From Octopus vulgaris (Eukaryota): DNA of 64,000 bases. The stretch lies in contig OX597817.1 of NCBI GenBank assembly GCA_951406725.2, forward strand, positions 82,274,001 to 82,338,000. Direction: 5' to 3'. The translations under genes and the position numbers were made by a program. Under the pieces are notes generated by a model. That model searched no databases and was not told where the DNA came from. It saw nothing but the letters and a program-made list of their open reading frames with translations. Shown in pieces: positions 36,105-37,188 of the stretch (position 1 is the stretch's first letter; each line of letters starts with the position of its first letter).

Positions 36105-36466
36105 GTGTATATGTTTTCATTCATGTGCGTTAGAGCATTTTAGATATTATTTCTAGCAATGGAAGGGCTTTTCAACAGCCTAGTCACACTTAGTGACAAT
36201 TATAATTCTCCTCTTTCGCGGAACATTGCAACCTGGTGTTTATATTAATTTTGTATTGTGTATATGTATATATATATATATATATATATATATATAAATA
36301 ATAGTTATCGCCATACTAATATGGCATTCTTATAAAAATAAGAATAAAGCTGTCCGCTTATTAGCTCCATGAGGCCATCGCCTTAAGTTAGCTATTTGAT
36401 ACACAAACTGTATCCATATAACCTTCGAACAAGGGGGGTCAGTCGCTCCACACTACTTGACCGGCA

Positions 36467-36508
36467 GCTACAGACGCGTTTCGGGGTATTGCCCCTTTTC
36501 AATGCAGC
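36467..36508 (-). ncRNA. Type I hammerhead, U3-A8 core variant (mirror copy)
   Basis: Exact reverse complement of 36795-36836. Confidence 0.8.
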
Positions 36509-36794
36509 GTAGCCAGACCAGTAGGTGTCGCTTCTGACAATCTCTGTTCGAAGGTTTTATTTACCTAGCTTCGGTGGAATACATCCACTTGTTTTCAATA
36601 ATAGAAATATTAAAATTACTAAGTCTCTCTAAAAGAGAACAACGGCAGCGTTTCCGGAAAATAATAGTTATCGCCATACTAATATGGCATTCTTATAAAA
36701 ATAAGAATAAAGCTGTCCGCCTATTCCACCGAAGCTAGGTAAATAAAACCTTCGAACAGAGATTGTCAGAAGCGACACTTACTGGTCTGGCTAC

Positions 36795-36836
36795 GCTGCA
36801 TTGAAAAGGGGCAATACCCCGAAACGCGTCTGTAGC
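36795..36836 (+). ncRNA. Type I hammerhead, U3-A8 core variant
   Basis: GCUGCA/UGUAGC stem I; UUGAAAA 36801-36807; GGGG[CAAUA]CCCC; GAAA 36821-36824; palindromic ACGCGU; GUC triplet ending at 36830. Confidence 0.8.
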
Positions 36837-37188
36837 TGCCGGTCAAGTAGTGTGGAGCGACTGACCTCCTTGTTCGAAGGTTATATGGATACAGTTTGTG
36901 TATCAAATAGCTAACTTAAGGCGATGGCCTCATGGAGCTAATAAGCGGACAGCTTTATTCTTATTTTTATAATAATGCCATATTAGTATGGCGATAACTA
37001 TTATTTTCCGGAAACGCTGCCGTTGTTCTCTTTTAGAGAGACTTAGTAATTTTAATATTTCTATTATATATATATATATATATATATATATATATATATA
37101 TATATATATATATATATATATATATATATATATATATGTATGTATATATATATATGTATATATATATATATATATATATATATTTATA

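Follow-up and report, generated by a model that had tools for sequence, protein, structure and literature searches.

A two-armed insertion of a 363-nt non-LTR retrozyme in Octopus vulgaris with a predicted type I hammerhead, likely pasted in by a Penelope-like enzyme

At 36296-37067 of the window, a stretch of 64,000 nt of Octopus vulgaris DNA, a non-coding unit of 363 nt is represented by two divergent arms, 430 and 347 nt long, with (TA)n tracts on either side. An earlier note on this DNA had described a candidate retrozyme at this place. The locus raises the question of what kind of element leaves two back-to-back pieces of one short unit, and how they came to be inserted there. Judged from its sequence, the element is a young, non-coding, non-LTR retrozyme with a predicted U3-A8 type I hammerhead and the insertion footprint of a Penelope-like element (PLE). 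The copy is best explained as a two-armed insertion of this retrozyme, and it was probably pasted in trans by a Penelope-like reverse transcriptase/endonuclease.

The window copy and its predicted hammerhead

The features of the locus are collected in Table 1, where unit positions are numbered from the predicted cleavage site. Sequence and repeat searches found the element at the coordinates given in the earlier note, with the TA tracts described there on both sides. The 363-nt period was present and recurs in genomic arrays, which confirm it over as many as about 7.6 units; the word "exact" used of it was a slight overstatement, as the 67-nt overlap (36296-36362 recurring at 36659-36725) contains one mismatch (36358/36721). 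Arm B aligns with three substitutions and one indel, in agreement with the roughly four differences reported before, and is 16 nt short of a full unit. The claimed lack of an ORF also held, with a longest stop-to-stop frame of 65 codons and a longest ATG frame of 38 codons on the circular unit. A short hairpin precedes start site 1 and is unchanged between subfamilies B and B2. The 63-nt "tail" between the two start sites is found in the window copy at the end of arm B only, with arm A ending at site 1 and arm B at site 2, which is the one-site-per-arm rule followed by the family. Just to the right of the (TA)n tract is a short inverted repeat pair (37200-37226/37279-37303, about 50 nt between), possibly a small MITE or hairpin element.

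Table 1. Coordinates of features in the window (unit positions counted from the predicted cleavage site)
Feature	Position	Strand	Remarks
Arm A	36296..36725	-	430 nt, 1.18 units, sense on minus strand; unit position 111 through cleavage site to 175-177; 3' end is start site 1, into (TA)n
Arm B	36722..37067	+	347 nt aligned (0.96 of a unit), plus-strand sense; spans unit positions 255 to 238 across the cleavage site; ends 3' at start site 2, into (TA)n
Microhomology	36722..36725	.	4 nt common to 5' ends of arms A and B
Start site 1 motif CTATTAT	36298..36304	-	3' end of arm A
63-nt "tail"	37005..37067	+	between site 1 (internal copy 36998-37004) and site 2
Site 2 motif CTATTAT	37061-37067		3' boundary of 63-nt tail, arm B
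Left (TA)n target tract	36262..36295	.	limits approximate
Right (TA)n target tract	37068..37182	.	limits approximate; any target duplication unreadable inside
Predicted type I hammerhead	36787..36842	+	motif scan, covariation
Hammerhead stem I	36795-36800/36831-36836		6 bp; distal part 36787-36791/36838-36842, internal loop between
Hammerhead core U3-U4-G5-A6-A7-A8-A9	36801-36807		U3-A8 type
Hammerhead stem II	36808-36811/36817-36820		4 bp, loop CAAUA
Hammerhead stem III	36824-36829		2 bp, inside the palindrome at this position
Predicted cleavage site, plus-strand hammerhead	36830/36831
Second predicted hammerhead	36461..36516	-	identical sequence; U3 at 36502, predicted cleavage 36473/36472
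Rod extending stem I	36747..36882	+	closed by 12-bp helix 36747-36758/36871-36882
Family A retrozyme	20518-20947		hammerhead at 20706; related pieces 11744-12022
TATA-like box and signal-peptide-like first exon	38721-38828	+	secreted VWA-repeat gene
Two similar VWA-domain exons	47444-47854, 55757-56338	+	87% identical DNA

The U3-A8 hammerhead was predicted in arm B with its core and cleavage site where they had been placed before, and a scan of the whole window for hammerheads gave this motif, its counterpart in arm A and one poor AT-rich match at 986. In the Rfam scan of the window no hammerhead was present among 150 of 165 matches listed, and the matches listed were only of microsatellite-driven miRNA type, below the gathering score. 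Stem I extends as a rod, as had been proposed, and the perfect 12-bp helix that closes it was found. Arm B folds as this rod with z = -6.26, and 0/100 shuffles were as stable. The minimum-energy fold of the rod contained stems I and II but not stem III.

The predicted fold was compared in 41 copies from three subfamilies, which revealed two-sided changes in stem II, in the distal part of stem I, in the rod and at the centre of the stem III palindrome. Despite the changes at its centre stem III stays palindromic across the subfamilies. In the 41-copy alignment 95.9% of cells pair, compared to 30-45% in slid controls, and the covariation of 0.139 compares with at most 0.041 when slid. The pairs at columns 58/112 and 65/107 are broken in many B2/B3 copies, and the count of pairs with a two-sided change was no higher than in shuffles (132 of 500). 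The covariation rests on about three subfamilies and therefore represents few independent events. Conservation of the hammerhead within family B was excluded as evidence, because the loci had been chosen by an exact hammerhead match.

Two of the checks proposed earlier do not suit this locus. The junction GUC|UGUAGC already exists as unbroken sequence in the DNA (36830/36831) and would be present in any tandem transcript, so it is not diagnostic of a circle. The idea of comparing monomer and dimer finds no same-strand dimer here: the window copy has one hammerhead per strand, as do 40 of the 63 loci sampled for insertion anatomy, and so cannot release a monomer. In a through-transcript of the plus strand all 42 hammerhead bases tested were predicted to pair with the inverted arm. 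With one hammerhead per strand, and that hammerhead predicted to be buried in a long hairpin, the window copy is likely to be a dead end.

The distance of 1.7 kb to a TATA box was borne out by a TATA-like TATAAAA at 38721, 1.65 kb away, which is followed by a signal-peptide-like first exon (by eye). Nothing beyond this distance linked the window copy to the neighbouring gene. Elsewhere in the window there are Tc1/mariner-type remnants at 30045-31732 (252-nt inverted repeats 30045-30296/31481-31732 and a Tc3 transposase HTH frame), a frame at 32333-32896 that is transposase-like by eye and gave no Pfam match, a 299-nt direct repeat (4397-4695/6271-6569, 94%) and several self-inverted AT-rich stretches at 21289-22423.

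The retrozyme family and its relatives

The genome (2.8 Gb, 227 contigs) was searched with three patterns, each of which had a control that gave 0 matches. The exact 39-nt hammerhead pattern matched 759 times, the degenerate pattern 1,498 times and a 24-nt hairpin near the first 3' end 3,052 times. The 363-nt family is dispersed and, as the earlier note had claimed, young, with a median divergence of 1.2% from the family majority over 88 loci. Together with the compensatory changes in the fold, these values agree with the earlier reading of a young retrozyme that codes for no protein and carries a U3-A8 hammerhead; it is of the non-LTR kind, and the hammerhead is of type I. Among sequencing runs, contigs at least 95% identical to 36296-36725 were found under three organism labels, so that the family is not confined to one label. 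Contigs of four sequencing runs cover the unit; these are not on record as RNA and cannot show strand, ends, level or circles.

Two sister subfamilies were identified, B2 with a unit of 362 nt that is 81% identical to B, and B3 with a unit of about 362 nt that is about 81% identical. Both share the anatomy of B and the same two 3' ends (loci L079/L120, L127-L156, L247-L261), and between subfamilies the start-site region is far more conserved than the rod. A third hammerhead variant, at one point read as solo copies, was found to be subfamily B3 of the same non-coding unit. Tandems of 2-5 same-strand hammerheads are carried by 23/63 loci, which could act as sources.

The window also contains a retrozyme of family A, which has a period of about 336 nt and is older than family B, with copies 82-95% identical. 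The two families had been described as otherwise unrelated, a view that the comparison overturned: the collinear alignment of A with B scored 88, where shuffles reached 55 at most, and B was matched at 15.1 bits by a profile built from 24 family A copies, for which 200 dinucleotide shuffles gave no more than 1.9. By these scores family A is a distant homolog of family B. As the core of family A is C3-G8 and that of family B U3-A8, the core pair has switched within one lineage, and the A/B pair represents a natural C3-G8 to U3-A8 switch in homologous hammerheads. The family A copies, too, seem to have two end sites, separated by about 50 nt (query 274 and 319-328).

Insertion anatomy and the RNA template

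The insertion anatomy was examined at all 63 loci listed on contigs C1 and C2 among the exact hammerhead matches, which comprised 45 loci with two divergent arms, 17 with one arm and 1 complex locus. The 3' ends of the 110 arms fell at unit position ~175 (53 arms), at ~238 (51 arms) or elsewhere (6 arms). Both sites read CTATTAT, and 93/104 fixed ends run into (TA)n. The 5' ends were compatible with a uniform spread (KS p = 0.35). The earlier note had proposed to test whether copies start at random permutation points; with 104/110 of the 3' ends at two sites only the 5' ends are near-random, and the fixed 3' ends cause this test to fail for the 3' ends while leaving the retrozyme reading unharmed.

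The two sites are used once each. Both ends could be classified at 41 of the 45 two-arm loci, and every one of these combines a 175 end with a 238 end (p = 9e-13 under free choice); the other 4 have one unclassified end. In a larger set of 145 loci, which consists of the 63, the top-scoring B loci and B2/B3 loci and so includes the 41 along with a few likely segmental duplicates, there were 91 two-arm loci, 11 of these with an unclassified end, and the rule was obeyed by 80/80 of those that could be classified. The junctions overlap by 1-12 nt at 37/45 two-arm loci. A duplicated word other than (TA)n was present at both boundaries of 21/145 loci, 10-14 nt long in 18 with a mode of 11; a target duplication is unreadable where both flanks are pure (TA)n. 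The fixed, paired 3' ends and the duplications of about 11 nt together constitute the "tail" footprint of Penelope insertions.

The arms have a mean length of about 410 nt and reach 2.7 kb, and 81/107 cross the cleavage site, a count with an upward bias from the selection on the hammerhead. The 5' ends at unit positions 1-8 were in about 3-fold excess (7.7 against 2.5 expected, p = 0.004), a weak effect given that three other 11-nt windows were equal or higher. This excess was considered as proof of cleavage in vivo and rejected as too weak; palindromes could cause part of it. A further concentration of 5' ends lay at the palindrome of the 12-bp helix, where positions 36-52 had 13.4 compared with 5.8 expected. 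At one locus (L103:5690-6085) an arm stops at unit position 282 and, with no (TA)n between, passes into the 3' portion of a different GIY-YIG frame on the same strand, a single case that may reflect a template switch or a later deletion.

The template was examined at the 12 variant sites common to 5 or more loci. Units within an arm disagreed in 3/483 comparisons, where 158 would be expected if they were independent, and the two arms of a locus were discordant in 2/384, where 121 would be expected, giving a combined discordance of 5/867 against 279. A further 28 rare variants were fixed in all copies of their locus, some of them 4/4 or 5/5 across both arms, while 179 occurred in one copy only and 12 in some copies. 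The single-copy and partial variants were read as changes after insertion, though a few could be inherited from multimers. The two arms of a locus thus share one haplotype, and single units are the source from which arrays are rebuilt. One haplotype per locus favours one RNA unit that was read repeatedly, likely a circle, and a repeatedly read circle would be its simplest account. The number of arms that cross the cleavage site, even as a biased count, argues that a cleaved linear monomer was not the usual template. The earlier suggestion that the copy derives from a circular or repeated unit fits both results.

Enzyme, mechanism and comparison with known systems

The back-to-back arms ending at two fixed sites are explained if, as is likely, one RNA was copied from both DNA strands at once by a Penelope-type enzyme. 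In such a mechanism a source locus with at least 2 same-strand units, of which the 23 tandem loci would qualify and the window copy would not, would be transcribed. The hammerheads would cut the transcript, probably as a dimer through the palindromic stem III, and by analogy with the retrozymes of mussel, coral and axolotl the monomer would be ligated to a circle. The PLE protein would nick both strands of an AT-rich target about 11 nt apart; of this step the duplication is observed and the nicks are presumed. Priming would then start at unit position ~238 on one strand and at ~175 on the other, in each case at CTATTAT adjoining (TA)n, with a single RNA unit read round repeatedly as the template; here the fixed ends, their one-each pairing and the single haplotype are observed and the priming is presumed. 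The two cDNAs would stop at near-random points and would be joined through a few bases of microhomology, to leave the observed structure of divergent arms with the tail at one end only.

A more specific form of this proposal, put forward tentatively, is that a complex with two heads works on one circular RNA and primes each nicked target strand at a fixed start site of its own, never both at the same site; it would roll round the circle, and the two cDNAs would be joined by microhomology. The 363-nt circle would be a minimal natural substrate for this reaction and an intact U3-A8 Neptune-type family would supply the enzyme. Such a family was found by the GIY-YIG search, in which the best 150 of 6,136 candidates were scored and which revealed many intact 781-aa frames with RT and GIY-YIG domains and a CxxxxCxxC linker, the Neptune-type cysteine linker described by Craig et al. 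2021 (bioRxiv 10.1101/2021.04.23.441226). The 781-aa family is young and Neptune-type with a 4.7-kb unit (loci L094, L095, L098 and others; e.g. C6:133343000-133351000). Its hammerhead is a minimal one of U3-A8 type that shares the stem III palindrome of B2, and its copies run into (TA)n from two end sites, about 37 nt from each other, of which the second reads CTATTAT. Its 3' end has 696 exact genome matches, and in 7/7 divergent pairs on C1/C2 a single arm bears the tail (by eye).

The 781-aa family is the best candidate for the helper and quite possibly the right one. In the PLE loci sampled the unit has no nucleotide homology to it beyond the shared motifs, and other Neptune-type families exist, so that it is a candidate only. 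The helper may well be another PLE family instead, either a different Neptune lineage or a Naiad, to the exclusion of the 781-aa family, the tail of which is about 37 nt against the 63 nt of the unit. Several other Neptune-type families end in (TA)n (3' regions of L107-L125), and Naiads prefer (TA)n and occur in Octopus spp. according to Craig 2021 (bioRxiv 10.1101/2021.04.23.441226). However, of the families seen, only the 781-aa family has both many intact young frames and a tail ending in CTATTAT (by eye), and Naiads are without hammerheads in the account of Craig 2021. Other Neptune-type families seem to carry U3-A8-like motifs, some of them atypical, and in one a base of the GAAA element is changed (by eye).

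The same element and enzyme could also have used an uncleaved linear multimer, transcribed from a tandem donor, with no circle and with the hammerhead dispensable for insertion. Such transcripts could be given by 23/63 loci, homogeneous donors would also yield concordant arms, and an anole PLE uses unprocessed RNA in vitro and inserts normally with a mutated hammerhead (PMC11167929). This reading is unlikely. Arrays that are homogeneous and yet differ from one another, with 28 rare variants fixed per locus and a discordance of 5/867, need repeated single-unit bottlenecks, and a transcript of a homogeneous donor does not explain how arrays stay re-homogenised. A purely linear lineage could only shorten its arrays, yet arms reach 2.7 kb, and the hammerhead fold is conserved with compensation. 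Published results also weigh against the mechanism preferred here: 8/9 predicted Xenopus retrozyme dimers failed to cleave (bioRxiv 10.64898/2026.07.22.740005), and the anole PLE could do without cleavage, copied mainly unprocessed RNA in vitro and had equal start sites on both strands (PMC11167929).

The inverted arm might have had another origin, either a later rearrangement or self-priming by fold-back, which was proposed to take place on an antisense template in the Penelopes of rotifers (PMC3846280), with no priming of the second strand. The enrichment of 5' ends at the palindrome in the 12-bp helix would suit a fold-back, but a palindromic centre is then predicted and only 2/45 two-arm junctions join nearly the same unit position (by eye). 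As it would also leave unexplained why the inverted arm ends at the other site (41/41) inside one target duplication, this origin is considered very unlikely.

The unit was also compared with coding PLEs. Over 7-10 kb, tblastn with six PLE proteins showed no recurring boundary with PLE coding sequence at any of the 63 loci, and none of 50 overlapping stretches had one either; attachment of the copies to a coding PLE at a fixed boundary, named in the earlier note as one observation that would count against a retrozyme, was thus seen at 0/63 loci. No pLTR homology to the unit was found in the sampled PLE loci (best 150 of 6,136 GIY-YIG candidates scored), and among 16 PLE 3' regions none matched the unit clearly above shuffles, with one of them at 52 where shuffles reached 50. 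No coding parent was found in the sampled PLE loci, where weak matches in L118, L126 and L112 were (ATT)n or chance, and L106 was rejected as a retrozyme-PLE chimera because another repeat of 160 nt lies between the two parts. That the unit is the pseudo-LTR (5'-truncated end) of an unsampled coding PLE and no independent retrozyme is highly improbable: it has the insertion anatomy and U3-A8 core of the local PLEs, retrozymes are reported to derive from pLTRs (bioRxiv 10.64898/2026.07.22.740005), L103 directly adjoins a GIY-YIG frame and L106 lies 160 nt from a truncated copy of the 781-aa family, but those 160 nt are another repeat, the recurring coding boundary is lacking at the loci and stretches above, the hammerhead is canonical with a long stem I in place of the minimal ones of PLEs, and the arms run from position 238 round to the next hammerhead head-to-tail, which leaves no room for an ORF.

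Several features expected of a retrozyme were found in the family, namely a short tandem unit with a type I fold in each unit, no ORF, no LTR pair, dispersed copies and a duplication of >4 bp. With the metazoan non-LTR retrozymes of PMC7229834 it shares a non-coding tandem unit of 150-450 bp (350-390 bp in mussel) with a GC content under 50%, a type I hammerhead with short palindromic stem III in a self-paired fold, target duplications of >4 bp and the proposal of PLEs as helpers. It differs from them in having U3-A8 in place of C3-G8, two fixed 3' ends with one per arm, an inverted second arm and (TA)n targeting, and circles, which for this family are predicted, have been shown for the retrozymes of PMC7229834. 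The retrozymes of Li, Clavereau and Pollet 2026 (bioRxiv 10.64898/2026.07.22.740005) are likewise non-autonomous, co-occur with PLEs and form monomers, dimers and multimers; their link to PLEs is through co-distribution and pLTR homology in vertebrates, whereas that of the window family is through the insertion footprint, and the available text names no mollusc among the sampled groups. Mobilisation of retrozymes by PLEs from circles is a proposal of both works (bioRxiv 10.64898/2026.07.22.740005; PMC7229834). Plant LTR retrozymes contain type III hammerheads in two LTRs and have a 4-bp duplication, compared to a type I hammerhead, no LTR pair and about 11 nt in the window family.

The unit has no RT or GIY-YIG ORF, as an autonomous PLE would, but does have PLE insertion anatomy. 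The EN+ Neptune-type PLEs share with it partial tandems, an inverted 5'-truncated copy, a tail usually at one end, duplications (8-10 bp) and AT-rich or microsatellite targets (PMC3846280; Craig 2021), as well as two internal RT starts that bound the tail with both strands extended (PMC11167929, where a dimer is predicted). The unit differs from them in having no ORF, a tail of 63 nt against 30-40 and a canonical as opposed to minimal hammerhead. The one-site-per-arm rule appears only qualitatively in the consulted text of the EN+ PLE papers, where the tail is described as usually on one end only (PMC3846280; Craig 2021), and in vitro the start sites are equal between strands (PMC11167929). 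The Cercyon PLEs of Schistosoma (PMC4209133), for which a circle model was presented, have the same U3-A8 core covariation, a palindromic stem III and presumed action as a dimer. They comprise about 1,300 mostly single minimal motifs, while the window family has a full canonical fold with loop I and loop II in a tandem non-coding unit and a C3-G8 homolog (family A) in the same genome.

Retrozymes, the U3-A8 core, which was published for Penelope-type hammerheads in PMC4209133, and PLE tails have all been described before. With mussel retrozymes of this size and the U3-A8 motifs of Schistosoma known, the element is an ordinary one for its class; the words "ribozyme" and "retrozyme" are absent from the main text of the 2026 octopus repeat annotation (PMC13282606). 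The value of the family lies in its readout of mechanism. The one-site-per-arm rule was not found quantified in the main texts of the open-access literature, and Craig et al. 2021 (bioRxiv 10.1101/2021.04.23.441226) count the way in which tandem and inverted PLE structures form among the problems still to be solved. The rule, the duplication of about 11 nt and the single haplotype give a sharp model that can be put to the test with two molecules of this genome, a short RNA and an intact protein. If this model is true, hundreds of genomic events in the family preserve a record of the way Penelope-like enzymes build tandem-plus-inverted insertions.
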